64,000 nt of DNA from an uncultured Gammaproteobacteria bacterium. Its GTDB lineage: Bacteria > Patescibacteriota > Microgenomatia > UBA10105 > UBA927. The stretch lies in NCBI GenBank assembly GCA_964394685.1, contig CAYMYO010000001.1:64040-128039 (forward strand), read 5' to 3'. The translations under genes and the position numbers were made by a program. Numbering within the stretch: position 1 is the first letter of the stretch; each line of letters opens with the position of its first letter. Below the pieces are notes generated by a model. The model was not told where the DNA came from. It saw only the letters and a program-made list of their open reading frames with translations, and searched no databases. Shown piece by piece: positions 3,238 through 60,749 of the stretch.

Positions 3238-5530
3238 TCTCATTATTGTAATTATCGCTTGTGTTATCGGTATATCTATATTTTGGAAAAGTAATATATT
3301 AGGCCTTGTTCCGTTTCCCGGTGACTATCTCTTAAGCTGGTACGAACCGTGGAAAACATATTTTACTTCTAACGGTGTACCAATACTTATTCATAAAGCG
3401 ATACTTGATGATGTATTCCGGCAATTATACCAATACAAAATGATTGCAGCAGATGACATTCGTCATGGGTATTTACCGCTTTGGAATTCATATAACGGGT
3501 CGGGAATGCCTCTTATGGCAGTTATGCACGCGGGATTTCTTACTCCGCTTATGGTATTGTTCGTAACACTCCCTGGTTGGCTAGCATGGACAATATATAT
3601 TGCCATTCAACCCATATTGTTATCCATCGGAATACTTTGGTATGTAAGAAAAATTGGTCTCTCATGGATGCCATCGATAGTTGTAGCGATTATTTACGCT
3701 ACATCCGGTTTTGTTACCGTTCGCTATCTCTATGGAGAGTATCTTTATGTTGCAGCCTGTCTGCCGTTTTTATTAGGGATTATTGAAACGTATCGTGAGA
3801 ATAAGAAATCGAAAAGTATATGGAGTATCCCGCTTATCATCTTGTTTATGATGATTTCAGGTCAACCACAAATGATTTTGTATGTTCTTTTCATGTTCGT
3901 TCTTTACGCACTAATTCGATTAAAGGAGACAAAGAAAGCATATATAACAGTAGGTATTTTATGTTTGACGGGATTATTGTTGTCAGCAATTCAACTTGTT
4001 CCGACTATAGAGCTCTACAAACAAGCAAATATGAATCCCCAGGCTTCAACATCTATTATTGAAAAGTTCTTGCTTCCCATTTCTCAATTAATTTCAATTA
4101 TCATTCCCAACTATTTCGGCAACTCTGCCACCTATAACTATTGGGGGATTGGAGATTATGTTGAAACAGTGGCCAGTGTCGGCAGTGTGGCAATAGTATT
4201 ATTCGGTTTTAGTTTACTATCAGGTAAAAGAAATGAGATTCGGACTTTTTTTCTTACGATTGTCGGACTGACAGTGTTATTAGTAGTGCGTTCTCCCTTG
4301 ACAGAATGGCTGTATACACTTCCCATTCCGATTATTTCAACAGGAGTACCAACAAGAATATTTTTCTTAACGACGTTTTCAATCTGTATTCTTTCAGGTT
4401 TAGGTTTGGATTATTATCTGCGAAACGTGCATGTACGCAGGGAACGAATTTGGATGGGAGCAGTGTGTATCATAGTTTTGCTATCTGCTTTAATTGGCCG
4501 CTTTATTGTTGAAACAAAAGGGCAAATGACTGCGTTTCGAAATTCTTTATTCGAAATAGCGATCTTACTTGTCGCTATATTTGTATTATTATTTATTCGA
4601 AAAATTAAGTCATTAAAACGTATACAAGTTTTGATATATGTTGTAATTCTTTTGCAGTTTGCTGTGGGATTATATAACAGTAACAAATTCTTACCTTTCT
4701 CCTCTCGTAATACCATATTTCCATATTCACAAGTCATTGATAAGCTACGAACAATAGCTTCTTTTGATAGGGTGACGGGACTTGGTTCTGCGGTAGTTCA
4801 ACCAAATATTGCTACAGCACTTCATCTCTATGATCCGAATTATTATGATCCGTTATATATTAAAAGGTACGGTGAACTAGTGGCATACGCGAATTCAGGG
4901 AGCGTACCGGATATTCTTCCGAGAAGTGATGTGATGATAAATAGTGAAGTAACACCGAAACAGGAAGTAAATCAAAGAAGAGAGAGATTGTTTCAATTGC
5001 TAAGTGTTCGGTACCTATTGCTTCATGCTAAAGAAAATAATTTTACCATTCAGGAAAACTCTCAAGCGCTTCCTAGAGCATATATAGTAAAGAATTATGA
5101 AAATATTAGTAATACTAATCAATTATTAAATCGATTGTTCGACCCGCTATTCGATCCAACAAATTCTGTCATAGTAGAAAAGGATATTCCTTTCGCAAAG
5201 ACAATAAATACCCAGAGGAATGATAGCAGTAAAATCATTTCTTATCAGTCGAATCATGTCGAAATTCAGGTTTCTGCATCAACTCCCGCCATTCTTGTTC
5301 TTACAGACACCTATTATCGAGGATGGAAAGCATACGTAGATAATGTTGAAACTCCGATATATCGAGCGAACTATTCACTTCGAGCTATTATTATTCCCCA
5401 GGGGAATCATGTGGTTCAATTTATTTATAGACCGTTATCAGTTACGATCGGATTATATATTACTTTAGGGAGTGGAATACTGTATATTAGTATTTTGATA
5501 TATATGTTTCGCAAAAAACCTGCTCATTAA
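3224..5530 (+). CDS. YfhO-family membrane protein (GT-C-like glycosyltransferase)
   Basis: The N-terminal motif LVPFPGDYLLSWYEPWK is typical of YfhO. The protein is large and polytopic, with a C-terminal YRGWKAYVDN beta-rich domain. The MKKDNLII start is preferred over the upstream M. Confidence 0.65.
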   Translation: MKKDNLIIVIIACVIGISIFWKSNILGLVPFPGDYLLSWYEPWKTYFTSNGVPILIHKAILDDVFRQLYQYKMIAADDIRHGYLPLWNSYNGSGMPLMAVMHAGFLTPLMVLFVTLPGWLAWTIYIAIQPILLSIGILWYVRKIGLSWMPSIVVAIIYATSGFVTVRYLYGEYLYVAACLPFLLGIIETYRENKKSKSIWSIPLIILFMMISGQPQMILYVLFMFVLYALIRLKETKKAYITVGILCLTGLLLSAIQLVPTIELYKQANMNPQASTSIIEKFLLPISQLISIIIPNYFGNSATYNYWGIGDYVETVASVGSVAIVLFGFSLLSGKRNEIRTFFLTIVGLTVLLVVRSPLTEWLYTLPIPIISTGVPTRIFFLTTFSICILSGLGLDYYLRNVHVRRERIWMGAVCIIVLLSALIGRFIVETKGQMTAFRNSLFEIAILLVAIFVLLFIRKIKSLKRIQVLIYVVILLQFAVGLYNSNKFLPFSSRNTIFPYSQVIDKLRTIASFDRVTGLGSAVVQPNIATALHLYDPNYYDPLYIKRYGELVAYANSGSVPDILPRSDVMINSEVTPKQEVNQRRERLFQLLSVRYLLLHAKENNFTIQENSQALPRAYIVKNYENISNTNQLLNRLFDPLFDPTNSVIVEKDIPFAKTINTQRNDSSKIISYQSNHVEIQVSASTPAILVLTDTYYRGWKAYVDNVETPIYRANYSLRAIIIPQGNHVVQFIYRPLSVTIGLYITLGSGILYISILIYMFRKKPAH

Positions 5531-7208: not shown

Positions 7209-9606
7209 ATCTATAAAGAATCAATAAACAAACAGCTCCGATTAAACTTATATATACCCCAATGTTAAACGATTTCGGGAAATAGGTGAATGTCACTGTA
7301 TGTTTCCCTTCGGGAACAACTATCGCGCGAAATGCCCAGTTGGCTTTATAAATATTCGTTGTATTCTCATCGACTGTTGCCTTCCATCCCTCATTATACG
7401 TATCGCTCATAAATAGCATCTGTTGTCCATCTGTATGTGTAGAAAAAGTAATTTCAGTTGGAGTATATGATTTCAGGGACACGGTATGATTTTCTCCAAA
7501 TAACTTTGGAAGACGTGCTATGTCATTATCATGAAGATAAACTGTGTTATTGGTATTAGTTATGTTATAAAATTGCCGTTCAAAATCGTTTGTGTCAATA
7601 TAACCCTTGACATCTGTTGTGAGGAAAAATCTCGGAGCAGCCTTCATGTTTTCGAATATCGTCCATGTATCTTTTTGCCATACCGGTTTGAACCTGTCTG
7701 TTGGAAAAGTGTTGTCGGACATTGGATTTTCGGAGCGATTTAAAATGTATTTCACTCCCAGAAGATCCATTATGCGAAGTCTATACGTATTTGACGGAAG
7801 ATCATCAGCTCCATAACCAGGAGCAAGTTGTGCGTCGGAGCGGGTTGTTCTATTAAATATGTTTGCGATATTTCCATCACGACTGCTTTGAATAAATTCG
7901 TTATACCATTTGAGATTTAACGGATCTGTTCCGTCTGGAGAATAGGTGCGTGTTTGCGTAGCAAAGTTTGCCTCAATTGCCGCAGTGCCATATCCCCAAT
8001 ACCGATATATTCCGGAATTCGTTTTCATAAATTGCATGATTGCATTTTCCGGAAATGCGAACGAAGACGGTACAAAAGGATTAAACTTAATAAACGAATA
8101 AAATAGTTCGATTACGGAAAGGGCGATAAGTGCATAGAGAGCAAGTGATGAATATTTTTTTGCAATAAGAAGCGCTATGATTGCACCAAGAATGACAGAG
8201 GAAAATATCATCGCCCGTTTCATTACAGCAAACGATTGAGCTGTATAGGTAAGTCCGGGAATTGAAGGATGAATAAGAGCAAAAAGCCAAAGTAAAACAA
8301 AGATACCAATAAGTAGTGATATAAACGGAATAATTGATTTTTTTTGATTTTTTAATGCATCTATTCCAAAACCCGCAAGGATAGATAACGCAAACAGAAG
8401 AATAAAAAGAATTCTAGTTGGTGTTCCTGTTGACATGATGGGCATTGGATATCGGTATAAAAGTTGTGTTATTGGGGTATTGACGGTAATCAAAAGAATA
8501 GCTACAGCTGTCCAAAGAAAGAATACTTTATGAAAAGATTTTTTTGGGTCAATGAGTGTTGCGATGACCAGGGAAAAACCAACCACTCCGATGGACAACG
8601 TTTTCCCGACATAATCTCCGGTAAAATTAGTTTTTGTTGCAGGATTTCCAAAAAAGTCCTGAATAACAAGAAGTGGTAATTGCCACCACTGAATAAGCAT
8701 GTTTGAAACAATTTGTTGGTAATCATGAGCCACACGTGCGGAATTTTTGAATAATTCTATTGTCGGGAGGAGTTGGGGAGCGGCAAGAAGAAAGGGAATA
8801 ACAATGATAAATGCTAATCCGCCAGCTGGCGGATAAATAATAAATTCTATTTTTTCTTTGTTTGTCCACGATCGGAGTATTAATAAACGAATAGTTATAT
8901 AAATAACTAAAAATAAGAAGCAGTTTAGAAAATCTTGTGGATGTCCCGCAGTAATTGCTGAGAAAAAAGCAAAAATAAATAGAATTTTTTGAGCGAGAGT
9001 AAGTAATCTTTGTTTAATTCCGCGTTCAATAATAAAAAGTAGGAGAGGAAGCCAAAGGATGGTATACAAAATAGTAATAAATTCCATCCAAATAGAAGCA
9101 AAACTGGAAAAATTAAATAGAATTGCTGATGCAACAGCTGCAGTTGCGCTCAGTCCAATTTCTGTAGCAAATAGATAAGTAAATACAGAGCCAAGAAGCG
9201 GTTGTAAAATAATAAGAATTGTCCAAGCGATAATTTGAGGGAATATGTAATAGAAAATTGTTAACGGATAAAATACTTGTGATTGATAATTAGCAAGTAG
9301 TGGACTACCGGAAAAATTATACGGGTTCCATAAAGGCATTTTTCCTTTCTTTATTTCTTGTATAACGAGTGTTTTCCAGGGGTATAATTCCCTAATGACG
9401 TCAAAATATTGATCTTTCGATGGAATAGCACCTGCCACATACCCGTTATATGATTGGTGTCGCCAGGGGCCGTATCCTGATAAAAGTAAATCCCCCGGAA
9501 AAGGGATAAGTCCCCGAAACAGTGTTTTATAGAAGAAAAGACAGACAACCAGAAGAATAATTGCTATAGGTATAACGCGTTTAGGCATCAAGAGTATTTT
9601 TTTCAT
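7195..9606 (-). CDS. YfhO-family membrane protein (paralog of 3224-5530)
   Basis: The motif LIPFPGDLLLSGYGPWRHQSY is present. The 803-aa protein has many TM segments and a C-terminal YNEGWKATVD domain parallel to the + strand paralog. Confidence 0.65.
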   Translation of the reverse strand: MKKILLMPKRVIPIAIILLVVCLFFYKTLFRGLIPFPGDLLLSGYGPWRHQSYNGYVAGAIPSKDQYFDVIRELYPWKTLVIQEIKKGKMPLWNPYNFSGSPLLANYQSQVFYPLTIFYYIFPQIIAWTILIILQPLLGSVFTYLFATEIGLSATAAVASAILFNFSSFASIWMEFITILYTILWLPLLLFIIERGIKQRLLTLAQKILFIFAFFSAITAGHPQDFLNCFLFLVIYITIRLLILRSWTNKEKIEFIIYPPAGGLAFIIVIPFLLAAPQLLPTIELFKNSARVAHDYQQIVSNMLIQWWQLPLLVIQDFFGNPATKTNFTGDYVGKTLSIGVVGFSLVIATLIDPKKSFHKVFFLWTAVAILLITVNTPITQLLYRYPMPIMSTGTPTRILFILLFALSILAGFGIDALKNQKKSIIPFISLLIGIFVLLWLFALIHPSIPGLTYTAQSFAVMKRAMIFSSVILGAIIALLIAKKYSSLALYALIALSVIELFYSFIKFNPFVPSSFAFPENAIMQFMKTNSGIYRYWGYGTAAIEANFATQTRTYSPDGTDPLNLKWYNEFIQSSRDGNIANIFNRTTRSDAQLAPGYGADDLPSNTYRLRIMDLLGVKYILNRSENPMSDNTFPTDRFKPVWQKDTWTIFENMKAAPRFFLTTDVKGYIDTNDFERQFYNITNTNNTVYLHDNDIARLPKLFGENHTVSLKSYTPTEITFSTHTDGQQMLFMSDTYNEGWKATVDENTTNIYKANWAFRAIVVPEGKHTVTFTYFPKSFNIGVYISLIGAVCLLILYRYEKK

Positions 9607-14409: not shown

Positions 14410-15648
14410 ATGCGTTGGCGCACATGTATCGCCGTAGTATTTTTAGTTTTTATTTTTTTTCGCTTCTTTCAGCTTGAAGAGCGGCTTGTTTTAGGTTGGG
14501 ATCAGACAATGAATGCATGGGTAGTGAAAGATCTTTTGATTGATCATAAATTTCCACTTCTTGGAATGGCAGCAAAAGGAAACAGCGGAGTATTCATCGG
14601 TCCGGCATTTTACTATATTTTAGCTGCGTTTTATGCAGTTACGAAGTTACACCCAATCGCAGCCGGATATTACGCAGGAGTTATGAGTGTTGTTGCCGGA
14701 ATAGTACTTTTTTTTGTTGTTCGTCGTATATTTTCAGAGCGGGTAGCACTTATCGCTCTTGCTGTTGCGGCTATATCTTTTAAAGTAGTTTTTTCTGACC
14801 GCCTTGCTGGACCAATTCATTTACTTCCGTTTGTATCTATTGCAATTTTTTATCTCTGGTACACAGTGCTTATGGGAAATTCGAAAGCGCTTCCATTATT
14901 AGCTACTGTTATCGGATTTTCTTTCCACCTGCACATGACAGCTATATATTATGTATTTATTTCTCTTTTGTGTTTCCCTTTTATTCTTCGTCAAAAAATA
15001 CCGGTAAAGATATATATAGTATCCATCCTGGCGTTATTTGTTTGGTTTATACCAAACATCGTAGTGAATATTCAACAGAATTACACCCTGACAACAACAA
15101 CGGGTAACTTTTTTACTACCTTTTATCATGGTCTACATCTGCGGCGGGTTTTGCAGCTGTTACCCGATGCGTTTATAGAATTTGAGAAAATTATATTGTT
15201 GGGGCCGTTTTCTTTTATCCGCTATATCATGGTGCCGATATTTATTGTTCTTATCTGGTTACGGGAAAAAAGAAAAAAAGCACTGGTCATCATCTATCTG
15301 ACGTTGCTGTGGTATATCGTTCCCTGGATTGTGCTGTCAACGTTTCGGGGAGAGATAAGTGATTATTATTTTGTTATTACACGTTTTCCATCTCTTTTTA
15401 TTATTGGGTACTGCATAAATAGCGTTCTATCAACACGTAGATGGTATCTTATTGGAGGTGTAAGCATATTGTTTTTATGGTTTTCTTACAATAACATTGC
15501 TTTATTTAGTAGATCAAATGATCGAAACTTCATCAAACAACAAGACCGCGCAATGTCATTTATTCAATCCGGCAAGAGAATGGATTTTCAGGAAGGCATT
15601 GCTGAATCGTATCTTTATTTTTACTATCGCAACTTCGATATGCGGTAA
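14410..15648 (+). CDS. Polytopic membrane protein, GT-C-like (WDQ-motif family paralog)
   Basis: It carries GWDQTMNAWVVKDLLIDHKFPLLGMAAKGNSGVFIGPAFYY and is a tandem paralog of the gene at 12921. Confidence 0.55.
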   Translation: MRWRTCIAVVFLVFIFFRFFQLEERLVLGWDQTMNAWVVKDLLIDHKFPLLGMAAKGNSGVFIGPAFYYILAAFYAVTKLHPIAAGYYAGVMSVVAGIVLFFVVRRIFSERVALIALAVAAISFKVVFSDRLAGPIHLLPFVSIAIFYLWYTVLMGNSKALPLLATVIGFSFHLHMTAIYYVFISLLCFPFILRQKIPVKIYIVSILALFVWFIPNIVVNIQQNYTLTTTTGNFFTTFYHGLHLRRVLQLLPDAFIEFEKIILLGPFSFIRYIMVPIFIVLIWLREKRKKALVIIYLTLLWYIVPWIVLSTFRGEISDYYFVITRFPSLFIIGYCINSVLSTRRWYLIGGVSILFLWFSYNNIALFSRSNDRNFIKQQDRAMSFIQSGKRMDFQEGIAESYLYFYYRNFDMR

Positions 15649-15677: not shown

Positions 15678-17308
<1,631 letters not shown>

Positions 17309-17324
<16 letters not shown>

Positions 17325-18085
17325 TCCTGTCTGTCGCAATCGTAACTTTTAACGAAGAACAGAACATTGATGCTTGCTTATTATCAATCAGCCAACTGGC
17401 TGATGAAATAATCGTCGTTGATGGCGGATCGAGTGATACAACGTGTGAAATAGCAAAGAAATATAACGCAACAATTATCCACACAGATAATCCACAAATA
17501 TTTCATATTAATAAACAGAAGGCACTTGATGCGTGTCATGGGGAGTGGATTTTGCAGCTTGATGCAGATGAGGTGGTGACAGAAGAATTGAAGAAAGAGA
17601 TCCTGAATCCGCCAACTGGCGGACAGGATGACAAACATTATAACGGATACTATATTCCGCGGAAAAATTATTTTTGGGGTCATGTTATGAAGAAGGGCGG
17701 CCAATATCCCGATTATGTCATACGACTTATTCGTAACGGCAAAGCCCATTTCCCCTGTAAAAGTGTTCATGAACAAATTGAAGTTGATGGGACTGTTGGA
17801 TATTTGAAAGAACCAATGCTTCACTATTCATACAGAACAAAAGAAGACTATTGGAAAAAAGCAGATACCTATACGACGCTGAGGGCTCTATCTATGCAGG
17901 AAAATAACATCAAAAAAACGCTTGGTACATGGGTACGTTATAACATTATTCTTCCCATAAAAACTTTTTTTCTTTTATTTATCAGACATAAGGGGTTTAT
18001 TGATGGATGGTATGGACTGGTCTTTGCCTATTGGTCTGCGCTCCACTTCCCAATATCATATAAAAAATATCGTAAAATGCTATGA
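17309..18085 (+). CDS. Glycosyltransferase family 2
   Basis: The N-terminus is GT2-like (LSVAIVTFNEEQNIDACLLSI...VVDGGSSDTT), and the DADE motif appears in ILQLDADEVV. The gene overlaps the 3' end of 15678-17324. Confidence 0.8.
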
Positions 18086-18600
18086 AAAAAATAACTTCGG
18101 TTGTGATTTTATACATAATACTTTATACGTTATACCTTATACTTCCGCTTGCTGTACAAGCGGAATATGTTCTTCCCTATCCATCATCTATGCCGGGGAA
18201 TAAAATATATAAAATAACAAGATTAGTCGATTGGCTTAAGAATTATTGGTATTGGGGAGATATTGCGCAGGCGAAGTACCATCTCATGTTGTCGGATAAA
18301 TATCTTGTTGAAGCGAAAATACTTTTTGAATATAAACAATATTTATTGGGAGACGAAGCGCTTGTACGGTCTTCAAATGAGTGGCAGCAGATACAGCCGC
18401 ATCTCAATTTTGCAAAAAATCATAATAAAGATATTACGAAATTATTTATCCTCTATAAAGAAGCTGCACAGGTTCATGAAATAGTGTTGCGTTCATTTAT
18501 TGTTCCCGAATCAATACTGTGGAATCCTGAGAAAGGAACATCTACAAATTTATATTTAAAAGAAGATATCACGAAAGCGATTGAAATTCGTAAACAATAA
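18082..18600 (+). CDS. Hypothetical secreted protein (signal peptide)
   Basis: The start overlaps the upstream stop in ATGA fashion. The N-terminal hydrophobic stretch ITSVVILYIILYTLYLILPLAVQA has an AQA cleavage-like site. The mature part is hydrophilic and Tyr/Trp-rich. Confidence 0.5.
   Translation: MKKITSVVILYIILYTLYLILPLAVQAEYVLPYPSSMPGNKIYKITRLVDWLKNYWYWGDIAQAKYHLMLSDKYLVEAKILFEYKQYLLGDEALVRSSNEWQQIQPHLNFAKNHNKDITKLFILYKEAAQVHEIVLRSFIVPESILWNPEKGTSTNLYLKEDITKAIEIRKQ
18111..18145 (+). repeat. Heptad array R2: ATACATA ATACTTT ATACGTT ATACCTT ATACTTC (within signal-peptide coding region)
   Basis: Direct reading shows ATAC at a 7-nt period five times. The terminal ATACTTC unit is the same as in R1. 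Confidence 0.8.
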
Positions 18601-19753
18601 TATGAGGAGAATTGCATATCTGTATTACATTTTTATACTCGTATGTATCGTTGTTTTTTCTTATGGGTTTAAAGATCCGAATTTAACGTTAACAACCTCA
18701 CCGTTTCTTATTTCCATCACTCACCAACTCACGTACGTTGTGTATGTACTTCGCCCGTTAGCAACGCTCATTTTTTTAGGTATTCTTTTGAGTCTTTGGA
18801 GTTTTTATGCCATTGTATGTAGGTATGGAGAGAAATTATTTTCTAATTTAAAACATCTTGCGTTTATTATTATCGCATCAGCATTCATTCTTTCATTTTC
18901 TTATCCCGCGTTGACACATGATCTATTTAACTATATGACCACAGCCAAGGTAGCATTCACCCATGGAGAAAATCCATATGTTGTCATGCCGATTGAAATT
19001 CCAAATGAACCTTACCTAGCATTTACCAGGGCAGCTAATAAATATGCATTGTACGGGCCAATATAGATTGCCATAACTGCACTACCACACTACCTTGGTA
19101 ATAATAATATTTGGCAAACAATTATCATGTTTAAGTTATTAAATACATTTTTTTATCTTGTGTTTGTATATATGGTGTATCAGATAACAAAATCCTTGAA
19201 AAATACACTATTTTTCGCATTCAATCCGCTTATTCTTATCGAAACACTCGTTTCAGGTCATAACGATATTGTCATGATGGTATTAGCAGTGGCTGGACTT
19301 TATCTGTTTGAGCAAAAGAAAATATCGGAAAAAATAATTAGCATAATATTGTTATTTGCTAGTGTTTTGATAAAAGGAGCAACAATTGTCCTTTTACCGC
19401 TTCTGTTTGTAAGAAAATTTGACCGTGATCGCTTACTGCTTACTGCTTACTGCTTACTGTCCATCGTCTTTTTCATCGCAGCCCCCATTCGGGAAGAACT
19501 CTATCCTTGGTATGCAGTATGGCTTGTATGTATTGTGTCGTTTCTTCCAATCAAAAAGCATATGTGGCTGTACGGTTTTACAACAGTTCTAACTTTTGCA
19601 TTAGAGCTGCGGCATTTGCCATATATGTGGATGGGGTATTATGAAGGGCCGGGACCAGTACTTCGCACCATACTTACCGTTGTACCAGTTGGTATATATA
19701 TTGTTTATACCGGAATGCAATACCTATCAAAAAGACAAAATGAAAAAATTTAA
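18581..19753 (+). pseudogene. DUF2029/GPI-mannosyltransferase-like polytopic membrane protein interrupted by a single in-frame TAG (19064-19066)
   Basis: ORFs 18581-19066 and 19127-19753 are in the same frame, with 18581 = 19127 mod 3. They are separated only by TAG and read GPI*IAITALPHYLGNNNIWQTIIMFKLL across it. Both halves are hydrophobic, and their combined length of about 390 aa is typical for the family. Confidence 0.55.
19432..19459 (+). repeat. (CTTACTG)x4 perfect heptanucleotide tandem repeat inside CDS (encodes LLLTAYCLL)
   Basis: Direct reading shows four perfect copies. The TACT core relates it to the ATACTNN heptad family. Confidence 0.85.
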
Positions 19754-21218
19754 GACGCTGTTTATATTACTTGGATTATTTTGTATTGCAGTTGCACTCC
19801 GCTGGTATTTGTTGCCAAGTCATCTTTTTTTTGGACCGGAACAGGGAAGAGATTTCCTTGTAGTACGAGATATTGTAGTTAATCACAAATTGACCCTCAT
19901 CGGGTCAAAAACAGACATTTCCGGAATATTCCACGGACCAATATTCTATTATCTTGCAGCAATCCCGTTTGCTGTAACAAAGGGAAATCCTCTTGGTGTA
20001 TCGCTGTTCATGATCATCATTCAGGCCATTGGTGTTTTCTTTATTTATCTTCTTGGTAAAGATATAACAAAAAGTAAGCGGGTAGGACTGATGACAGCTG
20101 GTTTGTATGCAATATCATTTCTTGGAATTGTATATGGACGGTGGTTATCAAATCCACCGCTTTCTATTCCATTTTCAATTATTTTTATATGGAGTTTCGT
20201 TCGTATGTTGCAGGGAGATAGACGGTATCTTTTTCTTACGGCAATATCATTTGCATGTTTAGGTCAGGCAGAATTTATTAACTTTTTACTTTTCGCTGGT
20301 ATTGTATTTGTGCTGATTGTACGATTTTGGAAGAAAGTTTTGGCTATACCCATGTCATACATAGGAATGGCATTGATTGTAGCTTTTGCATTGTCTTTTG
20401 GAAGCTATCTGTTGTTTGATCTGCGTCATGAGTTTTTGATTTCAAAAAGCGTCATGGGGCTTGTAACTGGTACCTCTGGGTATGGGGTTTCATTTCTTGA
20501 GTCAATGAAAAATGCATCACTCATGTTCGTCTCACAGTTTGGAATGATATTTGGAATTCATATGTGGCAAATAGGTGCTATTTGTTTCGCGATCACACTT
20601 TTTGTATTAGGAGTTGAACGGAAACGACATGAATATATTGATTTAGTTATCATTTGGCTGTTAGTACCGATTCTTATCCTTATGGGACTGCGACATAGCG
20701 TACTGGAACAACTGTATGTTGGACTTGTTCCAGGTATGATTCTTGCAATTGCCATCTTTATTGAGTGGTTAATTCGAAAAATATCAATACTTGGGATTGT
20801 CGTGGGATTAAGTGTGATCGCGATGAGTATATACGCATGCGTGAGTTATCTTCCAAGTAATTCCTTCGTGTTTTTCCAAAGCCCGCAACCGAACGTCAGA
20901 TATCGCGACCAACAAAAGGTCGTGACGAGGATTTATCAATTGGCAAACGGCGACAATTTCTATTTTCAGTCATATACAATTCCATATTTTTGGCAGGATG
21001 CATGGACGTATCTATTTTGGTATCAGGGGATAGAAAAGTATGGATATATTCCGAAGGAAGAGGATAAATCCGTAGTCTATGTTATTGTTCAAAAAGATCG
21101 ATCTAATCCAACATTTCAAGCAAATTGGTATGAAAAAACTGTTTCAGCGTGGGGGAAAAGAACAGAAGGGTTTACAATTGGAGAATATACTGTTGAAATA
21201 CGAGAGCGAGAACAGTAA
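19740..21218 (+). CDS. Polytopic membrane protein, GT-C-like (EQ-motif family paralog)
   Basis: It carries FFGPEQGRDFLVVRDIVVNHKLTLIGSKTDISGIFHGPIFYY. The MKKFKTLF start at 19740 overlaps the upstream stop. The C-terminal soluble domain is about 100 aa. Confidence 0.55.
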   Translation: MKKFKTLFILLGLFCIAVALRWYLLPSHLFFGPEQGRDFLVVRDIVVNHKLTLIGSKTDISGIFHGPIFYYLAAIPFAVTKGNPLGVSLFMIIIQAIGVFFIYLLGKDITKSKRVGLMTAGLYAISFLGIVYGRWLSNPPLSIPFSIIFIWSFVRMLQGDRRYLFLTAISFACLGQAEFINFLLFAGIVFVLIVRFWKKVLAIPMSYIGMALIVAFALSFGSYLLFDLRHEFLISKSVMGLVTGTSGYGVSFLESMKNASLMFVSQFGMIFGIHMWQIGAICFAITLFVLGVERKRHEYIDLVIIWLLVPILILMGLRHSVLEQLYVGLVPGMILAIAIFIEWLIRKISILGIVVGLSVIAMSIYACVSYLPSNSFVFFQSPQPNVRYRDQQKVVTRIYQLANGDNFYFQSYTIPYFWQDAWTYLFWYQGIEKYGYIPKEEDKSVVYVIVQKDRSNPTFQANWYEKTVSAWGKRTEGFTIGEYTVEIREREQ

Positions 21219-21220
21219 CT

Positions 21221-22813
21221 ATGAAAAAGTCGATTATCATGTTCGTTATACTGGCGATGATCATCGGTTTTGCAGCTCTACCTCTATTTAATTCATCATA
21301 CCTACCAACTCATGACGGAGAATACCATATTATCCGGATTGTAGAATTTTCAAAAATGCTTGCCTCTGGTTATGTATTTCCCCGTTGGGCGCCAACGTTA
21401 AATAGCGGATATGGAATACCGATTTTTGAGTTTCATTATCCGCTCCCTAACTATATCGGTTCATTTGTTCGACTATTCACGCATGACGCAGTCTATGCGT
21501 ATCAAATATCCATGGGACTTGGGTATATCATTGCAGCTCTTGGGTCATTTTTATGGCTTACAAGCCTGTATGGACCGTTTGCAGCAGCTCTTGGAACTGT
21601 CGTGGGAGCATATGTACCCTATTGGTTTGTAGATATATACGTTAGAGGATCTATAGGAGAAGTGTGGGCGATAGCAATACTTTTTTTCATTCTTTGGGCA
21701 ATTGAAAAGAAGCAACATATTTACACTGCAATTATGTATGGATTATTGCTTCTTAGCCACAACATTCTTGGAATGGTGTTTACTCCATTTTTATTCATAT
21801 ATATGATAATTCGAAATAAAAAAGCTATTGGAAGTCTTGTTTGGGGAATTGGCTTATCGGCCTATTTTTGGCTCCCAGCGCTACTAGAAGGGAAATATGT
21901 TGTTGGGCTAAACACTGTTAATTTTAGAGAGCATTTTGTTGCCTTGTACGAATTATTGATTCCGTCCTGGGGGACGGAATTCTCAGGGAGGGGTTTTTCA
22001 GGCAGTAAAATATCATTCCAATTAGGCGTTATTCCAATACTGATTATTATTGCATCACTTATAACGATAATTTTGGAGAAACAGAAAACCAAAAATATAT
22101 TAGTGAAATGGTTCTTGGTATTAGTTGGATTACTTCTCGTTTTTGTGCTGCCTTGGTCAAAGGGGATTTGGGAGGTAACGAGACCACTACAGTTTGTTCA
22201 ATATCCTTGGAGATTATTGTCGTTTATGATTCCAATAACAGCGGTACTGACTGCCTATTTGGCCAAAAAATCAAAAAAACCTTACGTTATGGTTATGCTG
22301 GCTATTTTGGCTGTCATTGCCACGTTTCCCTATACCAGAAAAGTTCACTATGCACCACGAAATGAAGCATATTATATGACTCGAAGTAATTTTACAGATG
22401 GAACATCATCTATGGGAAATAGCTTTTCAACGATTTGGACAGGTTGGAAAAAGGAGCGGCCGGAATCAGAATTAGTTCTTCAAAATGGGAAAATGACAAA
22501 AAAGGGAACATGGCAATATTTGAAAAAAGAATTCAACGTTCGTATGGATGCTGAGGGAATAGTGACACTCAATACGCTCTATTTTCCCGGTTGGATCGTC
22601 GTTGTTGATGGGAAAAAAGTGCCAATACTCTACCAATCTGACGGGATTATTCGTGCCTCAATTCCAGCTGGCATTCATGCTATCAAAATTCAATTTACTG
22701 ATACAGCTCCAAGAACTATTGGAAATATCATATCAATAGCCAGTTTGGTTGGGATCATTGGATGGGGTATACTGACTGTATATGAGAGTCGCAATCGACA
22801 CAACACCACTTAG
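21221..22813 (+). CDS. Membrane protein with PTPS-related domain (paralog of 15678-17324)
   Basis: The sequence LPTHDGEYHIIRIVEFSKMLASGYVFPRWAPTLNSGYGIPIFEFHYPL...YWFVDIYVRGSIGE matches the paralog. The C-terminal LYFPGWIVVVDGKKV motif is present. The gene ends with TAG. Confidence 0.6.
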   Translation: MKKSIIMFVILAMIIGFAALPLFNSSYLPTHDGEYHIIRIVEFSKMLASGYVFPRWAPTLNSGYGIPIFEFHYPLPNYIGSFVRLFTHDAVYAYQISMGLGYIIAALGSFLWLTSLYGPFAAALGTVVGAYVPYWFVDIYVRGSIGEVWAIAILFFILWAIEKKQHIYTAIMYGLLLLSHNILGMVFTPFLFIYMIIRNKKAIGSLVWGIGLSAYFWLPALLEGKYVVGLNTVNFREHFVALYELLIPSWGTEFSGRGFSGSKISFQLGVIPILIIIASLITIILEKQKTKNILVKWFLVLVGLLLVFVLPWSKGIWEVTRPLQFVQYPWRLLSFMIPITAVLTAYLAKKSKKPYVMVMLAILAVIATFPYTRKVHYAPRNEAYYMTRSNFTDGTSSMGNSFSTIWTGWKKERPESELVLQNGKMTKKGTWQYLKKEFNVRMDAEGIVTLNTLYFPGWIVVVDGKKVPILYQSDGIIRASIPAGIHAIKIQFTDTAPRTIGNIISIASLVGIIGWGILTVYESRNRHNTT

Positions 22814-23816
22814 TTCAGGACATAGTAATCGAGGGATTGGTGTATACACAAAAGAGCTTATTAGAGCGCTCCAAACATATGAAAAAGGCCATGAATATGT
22901 CGTTATTAATGGAATAACGAAACAGACCGCTCTTGTAGATGTGGTTCATTATCCTTTTTTTGATCCTTTCTTTCTCACTCTTCCACTTTCTAAACCACAT
23001 CCGACAGTCGTAACGGTCCATGACCTCATTCCTCTCGTATTTCCGGAACATTTTCCTATAGGACTTCGTGGAAATATTAAATGGCAAATACAGAAACAAT
23101 CGTTAAAAGGAGCAAAGCACATTATTACTGACTCAATTGCGTCTAAGTATGATATTCATCGGATTCTCGGACGGTCTGAAGAGAATATCCATTCAATTCA
23201 TCTTGCCCCATCTTCGTTATATGACCGGATCCCGACAAAAGAAGTTATTGTTGCGGTTCGGAAAAAATACAACCTGCCCGAAGATTTTCTTTTATATGTT
23301 GGCGATGTAAATTGGAACAAAAATGTTCCCGGACTTATCAAAGCTACTGCTTCCATCTCTACTCCACTCGTATTGGTAGGGCGTGCATTTCTTGACACAT
23401 CACTTGCAGAAACAAGAGAAATTAACGGCCTTATTTCGAGTCTGGGAAGAGAAAAGTTTATTATCCGTCCGGGGTTTGTGACAGATAGCGATCTCGTATG
23501 CCTGTATGAGATGGCGACGTGTCTTATTCAGCCTTCACTTTACGAAGGATTTGGTTTACCTGTTTTGGAGGCATTTATGAGTGGCTGTCCAGTTGTCGTA
23601 GCAGATAACTCTTCACTATCCGAAATTGCCGGTCCCGGCATCCGAGTGGATGCGCAGTCCTGTGAGTCGATGAGCAAAGGAATACAAACAGTGTTAGAAT
23701 TCTCAAAAGAAAAGCGCGCGCAACTTATAGAATGTGGACACGCGTGGGTGAAACAATTTTCATGGAAGAAAGTTGCTCATGAAACAGTCGCTGTATATGA
23801 AAAGGCTTTGGGATAA
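22782..23816 (+). CDS. Glycosyltransferase family 4 (GT-B)
   Basis: The motif [30 protein letters not shown] is the GT4 signature E-x7-E region. The N-terminal RVAIDTTPL..GIGVYTKEL is also GT4-like. Confidence 0.85.
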   Translation: MRVAIDTTPLSSGHSNRGIGVYTKELIRALQTYEKGHEYVVINGITKQTALVDVVHYPFFDPFFLTLPLSKPHPTVVTVHDLIPLVFPEHFPIGLRGNIKWQIQKQSLKGAKHIITDSIASKYDIHRILGRSEENIHSIHLAPSSLYDRIPTKEVIVAVRKKYNLPEDFLLYVGDVNWNKNVPGLIKATASISTPLVLVGRAFLDTSLAETREINGLISSLGREKFIIRPGFVTDSDLVCLYEMATCLIQPSLYEGFGLPVLEAFMSGCPVVVADNSSLSEIAGPGIRVDAQSCESMSKGIQTVLEFSKEKRAQLIECGHAWVKQFSWKKVAHETVAVYEKALG

Positions 23817-24894
23817 ATATCGTTTTGTTATTGTCGCGTTTATTATTTGGAGAACTGTACTTTATTTTGGAGAACTGATATCAATAACTGTTCCCATATA
23901 TTCAAAAACATATATGGGACTTATTCCATGGGCGAATACGGACGGACTAAATTACATAAGAATTGCCCAGTGGGGATACGGACACTTAAACGAAGCATTT
24001 TTTCCCTTGTACCCACTCATCCTTCGGGGTATTCACTCTATTATTCCGTTGTCGTTTGAAACTATCGGTGTCGTTGTTTCTACTGCCTGTTTTTTCATTG
24101 GGCTTACTGTGTTGTATGGGATAGTAGCACAATTGTCAATTAAGAAAGCAAGATGGGTAGTTGTATGTATTCTTTCTTTTCCTACCGCATTTTTCTTCAC
24201 CGCTGTGTATACGGAGGCACTATTTTTTTTGTTAACAGTGCTGGTACTCTATTTTTCACACAAAAAGAACTGGTTATTGGCAGGCGTGTGCGTGAGTCTG
24301 GCAAGTGCCACTCGTATGATTGGCATATGCACCGCAATATTTGTTCTTTATGAACTATGGAAGGCGAAATACAAGCTCAAACTTTTTGATATTGTCGGAC
24401 TCCTCGTTATGCCTATGGGGCTTCTTTCCTATATGTATTATTTATTTATTCAGTATGGAGATCCACTACGGTTTGTCCATATTCAGGCATTGTATGAGAT
24501 AAATAGAAGCGTAGGACGCTTCATCTTTCTTCCACAAGTAGTATGGAGATATTTAAAAATTCTGGTTCTCGCTGTCGGAAAACCGACCATTGTGGCATAT
24601 GGCGTTTCGATTGTTGAATTTGTGTTGACAATGGGCGCTTTTTTTCTGCTTTATTACGGGTGGAAAAAGAAGGTGAAATTAAGTTATGTGCTTTATAGCT
24701 TAGTTGTGTTAATTATTCCAACGCTCACAGGTACGTTTGCGTCAATGCCCCGATATATTCTTACGATTATTCCGTTATCTATCATTCTTACGCATATTCC
24801 AAGGAATTCTATTAAATACGTTCTTATTAGTATATTTTCTATTCTCCAACTAGTATCGGTAATGTTATACTTGCGAGGTTGGTTTATTGCATGA
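23797..24894 (+). CDS. PIG-V-like (GT76-type) mannosyltransferase family membrane protein
   Basis: The sequence WANTDGLNYIRIAQWGYGHLNEAFFPLYPLILR matches the Mannosyl_trans2 N-terminal signature (W.sDg.hYl.IA..GY...laFFPlyPll.R). The protein is polytopic. The start is uncertain, and the track ORF begins at 23773. Confidence 0.65.
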   Translation: MKRLWDKYRFVIVAFIIWRTVLYFGELISITVPIYSKTYMGLIPWANTDGLNYIRIAQWGYGHLNEAFFPLYPLILRGIHSIIPLSFETIGVVVSTACFFIGLTVLYGIVAQLSIKKARWVVVCILSFPTAFFFTAVYTEALFFLLTVLVLYFSHKKNWLLAGVCVSLASATRMIGICTAIFVLYELWKAKYKLKLFDIVGLLVMPMGLLSYMYYLFIQYGDPLRFVHIQALYEINRSVGRFIFLPQVVWRYLKILVLAVGKPTIVAYGVSIVEFVLTMGAFFLLYYGWKKKVKLSYVLYSLVVLIIPTLTGTFASMPRYILTIIPLSIILTHIPRNSIKYVLISIFSILQLVSVMLYLRGWFIA

Positions 24895-25577
24895 AAACAG
24901 TATCTATTATCATACCGGTATACAACGAAGAACAAACGATTCAAGAAATACTTATGCGCGTTGAATCGGTTGATCTTCCAAATTGGAAAAAGGAAATCAT
25001 CGTTATTGACGATGGTTCTACTGATAAAACAAAAACTATACTGCGAAAATGGGAAAAGAAAGTTGAAGTGATATACAAAGCGAAAAATGAAGGAAAGGGA
25101 AGTGCGGTGAGTATCGGATTATCAAGGGTAACAGGAGATATTATTCTCATTCAGGATGCTGATTTGGAATATAGTCCAAAGGACTACCTAACACTTTTTG
25201 CGCCATTTGATAATCCTCAGGTACATGTTGTCTATGGTTCTCGTTTCTTAGGATCGCATTTATCTACCATGTATCTGTATGCGCAAGGAAATAAGTTTGT
25301 TACATTTATAACAAATATCCTTTTTAACACCAATATTACGGATATGGAAACAGGGTATAAAGCGGTAAAAAGAGAGGTGATTGATGGATTAACGTTGAAA
25401 TCGAAACGCTTTGATATGGAACCGGAACTAACCGCGAAAATATTAAAAAAAGGATATCAAATATATGAAGTGCCAATATCCTATTTTGGTCGTAAATTTT
25501 CCGAAGGGAAAAAACTAACGTGGCGGGATGGAATCGTTGCATTTTGGACTCTTATTAAATACAGGTTTACAGATTGA
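24891..25577 (+). CDS. GT2 polyprenyl-phosphate sugar synthase (DPM1/GtrB-like)
   Basis: The N-terminus VSIIIPVYNEEQTIQEIL...IIVIDDGSTDKT...IILIQDADLEYSP is GT2 DPM1-like. The 232-aa soluble domain has the DAD motif. Confidence 0.8.
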   Translation: MKTVSIIIPVYNEEQTIQEILMRVESVDLPNWKKEIIVIDDGSTDKTKTILRKWEKKVEVIYKAKNEGKGSAVSIGLSRVTGDIILIQDADLEYSPKDYLTLFAPFDNPQVHVVYGSRFLGSHLSTMYLYAQGNKFVTFITNILFNTNITDMETGYKAVKREVIDGLTLKSKRFDMEPELTAKILKKGYQIYEVPISYFGRKFSEGKKLTWRDGIVAFWTLIKYRFTD

Positions 25578-25578
25578 T

Positions 25579-26838
25579 ATGAACATCAGGAACGTACTGA
25601 AACGAATTAGCTCTCACTCGCTTGCAAAAGACAGTGTCATTGTTTTGGCTGGATCTATGGGGGCAAACGTTGGCTCCTACCTTTACCATCTGGTGATGGG
25701 GCGATTGCTTGGACCAATTGGATATGGTGAATTGTCATCACTTTTATCCATTTTTTACATTTTTACTGTTCCTCTTAATGTTGGCGCAATAGTACTCGTT
25801 AAATTTATTTCTTCAATGAAAGCGCGAAGCCAACTCGGACAAGTGCAGACGCTTTTCGTTAAAGTGACAAAAGCTTGTCTTATCGGATGCATGGTTGTTT
25901 TTCCTATTATTATTTTAACGTCACCGTTTATTAGTACGTTTTTGCACATAGATTCAACCATATTATTTATCCTTGTCTATATTATCTTTGTTTTTTCATT
26001 ATTAACAGTCATTGCAGGAAGCGCGCTTCAAGGATACCAGAAATTTTTATGGGTAAGTATTTTAGGAGCCGGATCGATACTCGTGAAGCTTGTTTTGAGT
26101 ATTCCCGTGGTTACGTGGGGGGTATACGGAGTGCTTCTTGCGACGGTCGGATCAACAATGGTCATGTATCTTCTCTATTTCCTTCCTCTGCGGTTTATTT
26201 TTCAAATAAAAGCATCACCGCTTACCCTCACTGTTCGAGAGGCAATGCGTTATGCGGTACCAACGCTTCTAATTATTCTTGGTATGACCTCATTATATTC
26301 AACAGATATGATATTAGTTCGTCACTTTCTCCCCGCTCATGAAGCGGGGTTATATGCATCCTTAACGGTTCTTGGAAAGATTATTTTTTATGCCTCTTCA
26401 GCAATATCGATTGTTATATTCCCGGTGTTATCTGAACGTACGACAAAAGGGGAAAAAGGAACAAAGCTTATATTTATTGGCTTGGGGACTGTTACAGCCG
26501 TATCAGCAGGGATTACACTTCTCTATTTTGCATTTCCTGAGTTTATTATCCGTACGTTTTTTGGAAGTTCCTATATTCAGGGAGCACCGCTTTTGGGTTT
26601 GTTTGGAGTATTTTTAGTGTTGTATTCGATTGGAAACATGTTTACGACCATATGTATGGCCTTAAGCAAACTGACTATGTGGTTTGTTCCGGTTGTTTGT
26701 GCCGTTATTCAAATTATTGGCATAACCCTCTATCATAATTCCGTAACAAGCGTCATTTGGGTGAATATCGTTTCCTGTCTTCTATTAGTTGTAAGCCTTT
26801 TAGGGTATTATAGGAAACAAATCTATGAAAAAGTTTAG
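25579..26838 (+). CDS. Polysaccharide flippase, Wzx/MOP-superfamily
   Basis: The protein has about 12 TM segments. The N-terminal block NVLKRISSHSLAKDSVIVLAGSMGANVGSYLYHLVMGRLLGPIGYGE is typical of O-unit flippases. The ATG lies immediately after the upstream TGA. Confidence 0.7.
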   Translation: MNIRNVLKRISSHSLAKDSVIVLAGSMGANVGSYLYHLVMGRLLGPIGYGELSSLLSIFYIFTVPLNVGAIVLVKFISSMKARSQLGQVQTLFVKVTKACLIGCMVVFPIIILTSPFISTFLHIDSTILFILVYIIFVFSLLTVIAGSALQGYQKFLWVSILGAGSILVKLVLSIPVVTWGVYGVLLATVGSTMVMYLLYFLPLRFIFQIKASPLTLTVREAMRYAVPTLLIILGMTSLYSTDMILVRHFLPAHEAGLYASLTVLGKIIFYASSAISIVIFPVLSERTTKGEKGTKLIFIGLGTVTAVSAGITLLYFAFPEFIIRTFFGSSYIQGAPLLGLFGVFLVLYSIGNMFTTICMALSKLTMWFVPVVCAVIQIIGITLYHNSVTSVIWVNIVSCLLLVVSLLGYYRKQIYEKV

Positions 26839-27616
26839 TTTGATTGTTCCGGTTTATAAACAGGAAAAGACAATTAAGGAAAATATCCTTTCCATTCTTG
26901 ATACGCTGTCAAAAGTTGCGATTCCGTTTGAAATCATTCCGGTTATTGATGGGAAACTAGATAACAGTGAACGGGAAATAAGAAAGATTAAAGATTTACG
27001 TGTTCAGGTTGTTGGGTATAAGAATAATCATGGAAAGGGATATGCGGTCAGATACGGGTTTGCCCATGCCGATGGAGATGTTGTCGGGTTTATGGACGCA
27101 GGCGGAGACTTAAAACCGGAAGCGCTTCCAGTCATGCTTGCTCAGTTTGAGTTTCAAGATGCGGATGTAGTACTGGGCAGTAAACGGCACCCTGATTCAA
27201 AAGTCGACTACCCAACGTATAGGATAATTCTTTCCTGGGTCTACCAAAAGTTTGTGAAACTGTTGTTTGGTCTTGAGGTTCGCGATACGCAAGTTGGTAT
27301 GAAATTATACAAACGAAAGTTACTTGAAGATGTGCTTCCGCGACTTCTGGTAAAACAGTTTGCGTTTGATATTGAGATTCTTGCTGTGGCGTACCATTTG
27401 GGGTACAGAAAAATATATGAATCACCTGTAGAGATAAACTTTTTCTTTTCAAAAACAAGTATTGTTTGGTCAAAATTGTCTCGAGTTATCTATAATGTGA
27501 TAGCTGATACGTTGGCCGTGTTTTATAGGTTGAAGATTAGGCGATATTACGATAATGCTTCAAAACGGAAATGGCGGTTTGATCCGGAATTGAACTTTCG
27601 AATTAATATAGGTTAG
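26825..27616 (+). CDS. GT2 polyprenyl-phosphate sugar synthase (DPM1-like), second copy
   Basis: The sequence FSLIVPVYKQEKTIKENI...VIDGKLDNS...FMDAGGD...LGSKRHP is GT2 DPM1-like. The C-terminus is amphipathic. Confidence 0.75.
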   Translation: MKKFSLIVPVYKQEKTIKENILSILDTLSKVAIPFEIIPVIDGKLDNSEREIRKIKDLRVQVVGYKNNHGKGYAVRYGFAHADGDVVGFMDAGGDLKPEALPVMLAQFEFQDADVVLGSKRHPDSKVDYPTYRIILSWVYQKFVKLLFGLEVRDTQVGMKLYKRKLLEDVLPRLLVKQFAFDIEILAVAYHLGYRKIYESPVEINFFFSKTSIVWSKLSRVIYNVIADTLAVFYRLKIRRYYDNASKRKWRFDPELNFRINIG

Positions 27617-33500: not shown

Positions 33501-34513
33501 AGCTTATTTCGATTATAATTGTTAATTGGAACGGTCTAAAATGGCTTTCTGATTGTTTTAGAACTATCTACGAGCAGGATCACGGCAGGTTTGAAATCAT
33601 TTTTGTTGATAATGCCTCTAAAGATAAATCTGTAGCGTGGGTGAAAGAACATTATCCAAAAACGAAAATATTAGTGAACAAGAAAAATCTTGGATTTGCT
33701 GATGCGAATAACGTTGGATATAGAAAAGCAAAGGGGAAGTATGTGCTGTTTCTAAATAACGATACAAGAGTAACGAAAACATTTCTGTCCGAGTTAGTTG
33801 ATGTTTTAGAACGTGATAAAACAATTGGAGGAGTTCAGAGTAAAATGTTGCTTATGGATCATCCGGATACGCACGATAGCGTCGGCGCGTTTCTTACGCC
33901 AACCGGATTTTTGTATCATTATGGGTTTGGTAGAAAAGATATTTCAAAATACAACAAAGAAATTGAACTATTCACAGCAAAAGGCGCGTGTATGATGTTT
34001 CGAAAAGATGTATTAGATGCGGTTGCAATATGTGGTGATATTTTCGATCCTGATTATTTTGCCTATTTTGAGGAATCTGATTTATGTCATCGGGTATGGC
34101 TTACAGGATACAGAATTGTATATGCCTATAGGTCGGTTATATATCACAAAATGGGTGCCACAAGCAGCAGCATGAATAATGCTTTTATTCAGTATCATTC
34201 ATTCAAAAATAGAATTCGGACATATATAAAGAATTTTGGAATTGTCCATCTCATGTTGATTTTGCCCGTTCATTTGTTGCTCTGTGAAGGCTTTTCAGCG
34301 TACTCTTTAATAAAAGGTCAATTTCAATTATTCTTTGCTATACAAAAGGCATTTTGGTGGAATATAGTGCATTTGGGAAAAACGATACAATTAAGACATA
34401 TTGTTCAAACGAAAATACGGAAAACGAGCGATAACGATTTGGCAAGAAAAATTGTATATAAGCCGTCACTATCGTATTATGTAGGTTTAGTGCGAGGTCG
34501 GATATATGAATAA
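33497..34513 (+). CDS. Glycosyltransferase family 2 (rhamnosyltransferase-like)
   Basis: The sequence ISIIIVNWNGLKWLSDCF...IFVDNASKDKS...NLGFADANNVG...FLNNDT is present, and a DxD lies in FEESDLCHR. Confidence 0.85.
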   Translation: MKLISIIIVNWNGLKWLSDCFRTIYEQDHGRFEIIFVDNASKDKSVAWVKEHYPKTKILVNKKNLGFADANNVGYRKAKGKYVLFLNNDTRVTKTFLSELVDVLERDKTIGGVQSKMLLMDHPDTHDSVGAFLTPTGFLYHYGFGRKDISKYNKEIELFTAKGACMMFRKDVLDAVAICGDIFDPDYFAYFEESDLCHRVWLTGYRIVYAYRSVIYHKMGATSSSMNNAFIQYHSFKNRIRTYIKNFGIVHLMLILPVHLLLCEGFSAYSLIKGQFQLFFAIQKAFWWNIVHLGKTIQLRHIVQTKIRKTSDNDLARKIVYKPSLSYYVGLVRGRIYE

Positions 34514-59765: not shown

Positions 59766-59800
59766 TATCAAGTATAAAGTATTAAGTATTACGTATAAAA
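59763..59800 (-). repeat. Heptad array R4 (GTAT every 7 nt on + strand; reverse-complement = ATACGTA ATACTTA ATACTTT ATACTTG ATACTAT)
   Basis: Direct reading shows AGTATCAAGTATAAAGTATTAAGTATTACGTATAAA immediately after the galE stop. It is inverted relative to R3. Confidence 0.8.
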
Positions 59801-59807
59801 AACGAAT

Positions 59808-60185
59808 TCAACCGTGGGATGCTGCACTTTTAATTAATCCGTTGATAAGTTTATGAACCTGAACGGTTTGTTGAGCAATAGATTGAAAAAGTTCACTTTT
59901 GAGATATCCCAAGTCTCTTGCTATAACAAGTTGATTTTGTATTTCTGTTGTTGATCCAAGCGCCATGTAATAAAATTGAACCTTATCTTTTCTTGTTCTT
60001 CTGGAAAATCCTTCTGCAATATTACTCGTTATTGATACCGAAGCACGCTGCATTTGGTTAGTAAGAGAATATGTTTGATGATGAGGAAATTCAAAAGTTA
60101 TTTTATAAATGTTAAGAACAAGTGCGTGCCCTTCTTTCCATGCGGTAAGATCTGTAAACGATTGAATTTTTGTTACATTACTCAT
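59808..60185 (-). CDS. Four-helix-bundle protein (23S rRNA intervening-sequence protein family, PF05635-like)
   Basis: The sequence FTDLTAWKEGHALVLNIYKITFEFPHHQTYSLTNQMQRASVSITSNIAEGFSRRTRKDKVQFYYMALGSTTEIQNQLVIARDLGYL matches the family consensus (W..a..l.l.iY.....FP..E.ygL.sQ.rRaavSI..NIAEG..R....). The ATG at 60185 is preferred over the track's upstream TTG. Confidence 0.8.
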   Translation of the reverse strand: MSNVTKIQSFTDLTAWKEGHALVLNIYKITFEFPHHQTYSLTNQMQRASVSITSNIAEGFSRRTRKDKVQFYYMALGSTTEIQNQLVIARDLGYLKSELFQSIAQQTVQVHKLINGLIKSAASHG

Positions 60186-60747: not shown

Positions 60748-60749
60748 CC

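Follow-up and report, generated by a model that had tools for sequence, protein, structure and literature searches.

The 64,000-nucleotide stretch of DNA analyzed here (the window; positions 64,040 to 128,039 of contig CAYMYO010000001.1) contains, at 18602..19753 on the plus strand, a gene for a GT-C membrane glycosyltransferase of the PF26314 (MptA_B_family) family, with its reading frame present in full. According to its translation, the alignments of its homologues, and synteny, this frame comprises 383 codons and is broken at codon 155, where an in-frame TAG (19064..19066, plus strand) stands in place of an invariant tryptophan codon (W155); homologous proteins and DNA loci place the mutated base at 19065 (G>A). 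We propose, with a probability of roughly 0.8, that this TAG is a recent and probably segregating nonsense allele (W155*) that leaves the enzyme inactive in its carriers, that is, a plain loss of function and neither a case of recoding nor a reversible switch. A single G>A transition at 19065 would have turned the TGG codon of Trp-155 into TAG, translation would halt after 154 residues, so that the helices at the N-terminus and the predicted first external loop are kept, and the enzyme would lose its later helices and the invariant motifs downstream, which would probably inactivate it in cells with the TAG allele. With no other decay in the gene, the mutation would be very recent, and since the ancestral G is seen in a same-strain sister sample, both alleles probably still coexist. 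The population in question would be one of Gottesmanbacteria (Microgenomates, Patescibacteria), uncultured bacteria of a groundwater type, and the gene lies within a large surface-glycan gene cluster.

The broken reading frame and its ancestral codon

From 18581 to 19753, the plus strand holds a single frame whose sole internal stop is the TAG at 19064-19066, with the open reading frames (ORFs) 18581-19066 and 19127-19753 in the same frame. Translation and a frame scan thus confirm what had been noted in a sequence-only reading of this DNA, namely that a membrane gene is split by one in-frame TAG. That reading also gave a combined protein of 390 aa with a length typical of its family; the comparison with the family stands, but the length from the likely start, ATG 18602, is 383 codons. 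This ATG abuts the TAA of the upstream ORF, and the N-terminus that begins there, MRRIAYLYY, aligns with the N-termini of homologues (for example, MRSIVYAYY). The stop leaves an N-terminal fragment (18602..19063, plus strand, 154 codons), which would be translated and would include the first transmembrane helices and the predicted first external loop with an invariant D107, and a C-terminal remainder (19127..19753, plus strand, 208 codons from its first ATG), which lacks residues 155-175 and is not an independent gene. A six-frame scan of the window for single stops with 90 or more open codons on either side gave four sites; the one at 19064-19066 is the only TAG among them, and the other three (TGA 28754, TAA 45095, and TAA 62564) lie between neighboring ORFs, each with its own ATG.

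A protein search across 5.8 billion proteins yielded 774 homologues, the best matches among which are uninterrupted proteins of 360-390 aa with the Pfam family PF26314. We aligned 27 sequences and then 114, and the column of the TAG is occupied by W in 113/113 aligned homologous proteins, within the motif ALYGP-x-W. At the DNA level, we compared 64 homologous loci from species-representative genomes, titled as Gottesmanbacteria, Levybacteria, Shapirobacteria, and other Patescibacteria metagenome-assembled genomes (MAGs). At the position of the stop, 62 of them have TGG, two have TTT, and none has TAG, and TGG is also present in the closest relatives (L067-L070, 77% nucleotide identity). On these alignments, the event is a change of TGG to TAG, a G>A transition at 19065. 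Among the options offered by the sequence-only reading, a recent nonsense mutation is the one that fits, with orthologues that are uninterrupted and have a sense codon, TGG (Trp), at the site of the stop.

The rest of the gene is well preserved. With W restored, the protein is off consensus at one of the 108 columns conserved at 90% or more, the median among homologues being two; since the gene is otherwise without any sign of decay, the mutation would be either very young or not fixed. No internal stops were found in the 64 genome loci. Several homologue genes that seemed shorter (L008 and others) were considered as interrupted copies and rejected, given that their "*" characters are natural terminal stops. 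The sole disrupted copy among the 64 loci is that of L021 (Gottesmanbacteria MAG MFD05942.bin.1.195), in which the orthologous gene has a +1 frameshift at 4290-4310, at a CCCCGG run in the conserved SYPALTYD motif; if this MAG is from long reads, the frameshift is most likely a sequencing error. As a separate observation, many third-party annotation MAGs with this Microgenomates-specific gene (L005, L006, L010, L011, and others), some of which also share its gene order, have "uncultured Gammaproteobacteria bacterium" as their title, which looks like a placeholder or a mislabel.

The source NCBI record, a contig of 193,165 bp, annotates two separate coding sequences, P0137 (154 aa) and P0141 (193 aa), and one could thus think of a naturally split, two-subunit enzyme made of a 154-aa and a 193-208-aa product encoded by separate functional genes. 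A Shine-Dalgarno sequence precedes only seven of 40 window genes; that ATG 19127 has none is thus uninformative on a restart, and initiation could take place there without one. Nevertheless, full-length homologues are single polypeptides without internal stops at the 64 loci, and the few shorter ones are mostly on contigs of 1-5 kb, with one at the L021 frameshift. Among the homologues, there is no stand-alone C-terminal protein with a conserved start of its own. Moreover, the two pieces together would omit residues 155-175, in which five positions are conserved at 90% or more (T159, P162, G166, W171, and T173), and two gene callers disagree on where the second piece begins, which has 208 aa in Logan and 193 aa in NCBI. 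We consider it hardly credible that the two products are separate functional genes.

Alleles at position 19065

Exact-product look-ups led to same-strain Logan contigs from three sister runs (SRR13723393, SRR13723394, and SRR13723397). The contig from SRR13723394 (L002) is identical to the window from 16660 to 19064 (2,405 nt), and its last base, at 19065, is G. This terminal G is the sole mismatch across about 12.5 kb of same-strain sequence, and it restores the first two letters of TGG. A contig from SRR13723397 (L001/L072) is identical to 19052-24082 (5,031 nt) and has A at 19065, another from the same run (L071) is identical to 16337-19037, and the one from SRR13723393 (L073) is identical to 19158-21589. 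It is very unlikely that a chance terminal error would hit exactly 19065 with exactly G. In addition, the contig ends at 19037, 19052, and 19065 cluster within 30 nt in contigs that are otherwise 2-5 kb long, and a G/A polymorphism that helps to break low-coverage de Bruijn assemblies is what explains these ends best. Position 19065 is thus most likely polymorphic within one population.

Several points weigh against this interpretation. The G allele is known from a single base at the very end of one low-coverage contig, where assemblies are at their least reliable. The ends at 19037, 19052, and 19065 are also unlike the textbook bubble of a single-nucleotide polymorphism (SNP) at k=31, with low coverage contributing as well. 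The evidence on the alleles comes from assembled contigs and not from read counts, and the MAG of the window and the Logan contig from SRR13723397 may share reads, in which case the A allele would possibly come from one independent source. A search of genomes and of JGI metagenome contig collections with an exact 41-nt pattern, with N at the SNP, gave no other copies of the strain, and a search with a 175-aa fragment containing the W gave no same-strain protein that spans the site, the only products at 100% identity being the two split ones.

A related possibility is that the organism truly has TGG and that the A at 19065 is a sequencing or consensus artefact of the assembly. The gene is otherwise perfectly intact, there is a same-strain contig with G at this position, and coverage is evidently low, given that the Logan contigs of the strain are only 2-5 kb long, all of which would be in keeping with such an error. 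However, the Logan assembly of SRR13723397 also has A, in the contig that agrees with the window along all of its 5,031 nt (although it may share reads with the MAG), and the site is outside any homopolymer or repeat. Logan-type assemblies require k-mers seen more than once, which also counts against a consensus error. The sequence-only reading had named a sense codon in the reads as the result that would turn its call into an assembly error, and what we found goes halfway, with G in the SRR13723394 contig and A again in the SRR13723397 assembly. Because G is present in one sister-sample contig and A in another independent assembly, we favor a segregating polymorphism and give an assembly error a slight chance.

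Stop codon usage and the predicted product

Among 56 ORFs in the window, 26 end in TAA, 23 in TGA, and seven in TAG. Apart from the interrupted gene, TAG terminates 21221-22813, 25528-26838, 26825-27616, 34506-35300, 36306-38141 (minus strand), and 58785-59765, the last of which encodes a galE-like epimerase. Each of these six ORFs has a further stop 3-6 codons downstream, and the product of 21221-22813 ends at the same alignment column as homologues whose genes end in TAA or TGA. With TAG in use as the terminator of six ORFs and only one internal TAG split in 64 kb, we consider a UAG-reassigned code unlikely, in agreement with the sequence-only reading, in which TAG was taken as a true terminator and genome-wide reassignment as unlikely.

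Programmed readthrough or suppression of UAG, whether by a suppressor tRNA, pyrrolysine-type decoding, or a leaky context, would instead produce the full-length enzyme at a reduced level. The frame beyond the stop is intact, as readthrough would predict, and the check for a tRNA with a CUA anticodon was limited to the window, a limit that tells against a plain nonsense allele. On the other hand, the stop is not conserved, as seen from the TGG at 62 of 64 loci and the TAG at none, and six other ORFs of the window truly terminate at a TAG. There are no tRNA genes in these 64 kb, a 121-nt segment around and downstream of the stop has no more stable a fold than shuffled sequences (z = +0.35), and Rfam gave no significant match at the stop (none with E below 0.9). 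Furthermore, the G allele in the sister sample fits a mutation and not a design. Readthrough had been left as an option by the sequence-only reading, together with a search for a suppressor tRNA or a readthrough context; with these results it is largely refuted, and we leave it a minimal likelihood.

As for the product that would be lost under a nonsense allele, precomputed PF26314 matches exist for all 120 listed homologues and for the 208-aa C-terminal product of the window (L001 gene 76-702). The merged window protein had no match in our local Pfam copy, which apparently lacks the PF26314 model, as P0001, a homologue with a precomputed PF26314 match, was also unmatched at E<=10. The gene had been labeled as DUF2029/GPI-mannosyltransferase-like on first reading. 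The second part of this label holds, in that we are dealing with a GT-C, GPI-mannosyltransferase/PimE-like family, but DUF2029 is an approximation, since the family is PF26314 and PF09594 (GT87, formerly DUF2029) had no match at E<=10 in the window protein (with X or W restored), P0001, or P0022. Only one homologue, P0100, passes for PF09594, with 31.6 bits against a cutoff of 25.

A family-profile search of PDB sequences found no solved structures, its sole match (E=0.14) being spurious, and the structure considered here is the AlphaFold model of P0001, which is 77% identical to the window protein. The model predicts a polytopic membrane fold that is superimposable on solved GT-C enzymes. In the homologue alignment, D107 is invariant and D25 is conserved at 90% or more; in the model, D107 heads a short helix between transmembrane helices and would be a candidate for the acidic residue that GT-C enzymes conserve in their first extracytoplasmic loop, and the helix after the predicted first external loop begins at W155 (W162 in P0001). 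Truncation at 155 removes the later transmembrane helices together with the invariant K178, NPL 208-210, E214, HND 220-222, K258, REELYPWY 297-304, and R337. Judging from the alignment and the model, the enzyme is probably inactive in cells with the TAG allele.

Heptanucleotide tracts and the surrounding cluster

The same gene contains a perfect heptanucleotide tract at 19431..19459 (plus strand), (GCTTACT)4.1 or (CTTACTG)4, which encodes RLLLTAYCLL; TRF gives 4.1 copies, as expected from the sequence-only reading, which had pointed out this tract. A unit length that is not divisible by three, inside an ORF, is a property of contingency loci, and it could be supposed that slippage of the tract turns the gene on and off and that the TAG is a second, independent "off" hit under fluctuating selection. 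The perfection of the 4.1 copies would agree with this, as would the conservation of the 7-nt periodicity in four diverged relatives (L067, L070, L074, and L076, around 60% identical overall), whose orthologous tracts have exactly four units of CTTATTG or CTTACTG. Moreover, CTTACTG fills 0, 0, 1, 2, and 4 of the four units in L070, L074, L076, L067, and the window, respectively, a pattern of unit variants that looks like concerted evolution and suggests occasional homogenization. The enrichment in period-7 repeats within ORFs and the start of a same-strain contig inside another array, both described below, point the same way.

However, the copy number does not differ among relatives. Each of the five lineages has four units, no change in the tract is seen in the two same-strain assemblies that contain it (L072 from SRR13723397 and L073 from SRR13723393), and the protein alignment shows no length variation at the tract. 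No heptamer copy-number difference was found between L074 and L075, which represent the same homologue in two samples and are identical. In L013, a closely similar peptide (TLLIAYCLMSF) is encoded without DNA periodicity, and no frameshifted allele was seen. Four units are also far below the 13-38 copies of the phase-variable heptanucleotide tracts of Haemophilus influenzae (PMC2651432). In heptanucleotide phase variation, a change of one unit shifts the frame and a change of three units adds seven residues (PMC2651432; PMC13001214). The tract is thus at best a potential slippage site and not a demonstrated switch, and we find it very unlikely that it acts as a contingency locus with the TAG as a second hit.

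The sequence-only reading had mentioned a second heptad pair, ACTACCA CACTACC, immediately after the TAG. It is really CACTACC-A-CACTACC, that is, two copies with a period of 8, and TRF does not report it even at score 30. This sequence encodes a conserved A-L/I-P-H-Y-L motif, and the pair is a coincidence within that motif and not a feature. The notion that two mutational switches coincide in this gene has to be abandoned: a point nonsense mutation is no switch, the tract is constant at four units, and the second pair is no notable repeat.

Heptanucleotide arrays are nevertheless common in these loci. We counted perfect tandem repeats of at least three copies in the window and in 572 kb of related Microgenomates loci, which are stretches centered on this glycosylation gene, and found three with period 7 in the window and 19 in the related loci, as opposed to 0-1 at each of the periods 5, 6, and 8-12. 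Of the period-7 arrays, 21/22 lie within long ORFs, several at a similar distance into GT-C-sized ORFs of around 550 codons and others in ORFs of 180-400 codons. Heptamer arrays are located at 16316-16349, 18108-18144, 19431-19459, 60873-60913, and 61321-61341 in the window, and they are present in L013, L015, L033-L035, L041, L044, L045, L055, L061, L062, L068, L070, and L074 among the related loci. ATACTTT-like units at 16316, 18108, 59764 (minus strand), 60750, and 61321 (minus strand) account for 15 matches against 1.95 expected. In L067 (around 2470-2510), L070 (2473-2510), and L074 (2473-2510), CTTATTG/CTTACTG units also build the signal peptide (CLLLIAYCLLFIV) of the upstream DUF5667-like protein, and 1.3 kb downstream of it the same units build the hydrophobic RLLLIAYCLLS in the glycosyltransferase (around 3827-3855). 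The signal-peptide array of the window has TTATACN units instead, like the array at 16316.

This last array, a perfect (ATACTTT)4.9 at 16316-16349 in the GT-C gene 15678-17324, is where contig L071 from SRR13723397 begins, at 16337, exactly three units (21 nt) in. Such a start could be the expected k-mer-graph signature of a coexisting in-frame variant that is three units shorter, or it could be a coincidence of low coverage. Exact-product look-ups of the ORFs 14410-15648 and 15678-17324 found no same-strain contigs across the array.

Because the arrays lie inside many glycosyltransferase and signal-peptide ORFs, with related units at several sites per genome and units that change in concert between genomes, they might be generated specifically and throughout the lineage in the surface-glycan loci of Microgenomates, and possibly be length-variable or frameshift-prone in a NeuO-like manner. 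The TAG allele would then be a further sign that, in an episymbiotic or ultra-small bacterium, the cell-surface glycan is under fluctuating selection. We put this forward tentatively and consider it rather unlikely. We found no paper that links Candidate Phyla Radiation bacteria to such heptanucleotide repeats. In L061, an array at 7240-7269, (CTCAAAA)4.3, encodes LKTQNSKLKT; the unit of the phase-variable neuO of Escherichia coli K1 is AAGACTC (CTCAAGA when rotated), and the likeness of the two units, which are one base apart, is probably a coincidence.

The cluster that contains the interrupted gene extends over at least 50 kb, almost wholly on the plus strand, and includes genes for GT-C (PMT_2, PTPS_related/YfhO), GT2, and GT4 glycosyltransferases, a flippase-like protein, a carbamoyltransferase, and an epimerase; the G+C content of the window is 36%. 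The order GT2, DUF5667-like, interrupted gene, and GT-C is kept in L067, L068, L070, L074, and L076. The downstream gene, of the PMT_2-type GT-C according to Pfam and to the gene call in L001/L072 (19740..21218, plus strand), has its ATG inside the interrupted gene, with 14 nt shared between the two, and the TAG may possibly exert polarity on it.

Farther along, two heptamer arrays at 59764-59796 and 60750-60782, one of AGTATNN x5 and the other its reverse complement, make up inverted arms of 33 nt with 82% complementarity. They enclose 953 nt (59797-60749) with the only two minus-strand ORFs of that part of the cluster, namely 60178-60747, which encodes a GT4 N-terminal domain without the C-terminal domain, and 59808-60242, which encodes a 23S_rRNA_IVP/bAvd-like four-helix protein. 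The segment between the arms may be inserted or invertible. The strongest tandem repeat in the window is of another kind, with a 39-nt unit in 3.0 copies at 97% identity (53176-53293, TRF score 222) inside ORF 52369-53454.

Meaning and comparison with known systems

The TAG matters mainly for annotation. The two public coding sequences are the halves of one nonsense-mutated gene, and such a split pair should not count as evidence of recoding in Patescibacteria. It also offers a concrete case of a possibly segregating loss-of-function allele in a surface-glycosylation cluster of an uncultured population, which may have been favored by selection, for example through pressure from phages or a host on the surface glycans. 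The enrichment in heptanucleotides inside glycosyltransferase genes is the more interesting lead, as it would bear on surface variation in bacteria with small genomes.

In terms of the enzyme, the closest comparisons are the GT-C mannosyltransferases of Corynebacterineae that use polyprenyl-phosphate-mannose, of the MptA/MptB type and the PimE type (GT87). The host here is different, belonging to Patescibacteria/Microgenomates, from which, to our knowledge, no lipomannan or lipoarabinomannan has been described. MptA and MptB are longer than the window protein (around 380 aa), and the window protein itself has no GT87 match even at E<=10. The eukaryotic GT-C enzymes of the endoplasmic reticulum lumen (ALG3, ALG6, and GPI mannosyltransferase I/PIG-M) resemble it in fold and not in family, with 9-15% identity. 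In contrast to those enzymes, the one in the window belongs to a bacterium, and its lipid carrier is presumably of the undecaprenyl type.

The tract, for its part, recalls NeuO of E. coli K1 and hmw1A/hmw2A of H. influenzae, in which a 7-nt unit is likewise repeated in or beside a surface-modification gene. However, there are four units here as opposed to 13-38 in H. influenzae, with no copy-number variation in five lineages and two samples. In addition, the tract of the window encodes a conserved hydrophobic segment of fixed length and not an N-terminal extension. As for the TAG, a surface-polysaccharide gene with a common nonsense polymorphism, or on its way to becoming a pseudogene, would show the same single transition at a Trp codon, with the gene intact elsewhere and the two alleles detectable in one population; nothing sets the present case apart from this general one, and its only unusual aspect is the uncultured lineage of the host.

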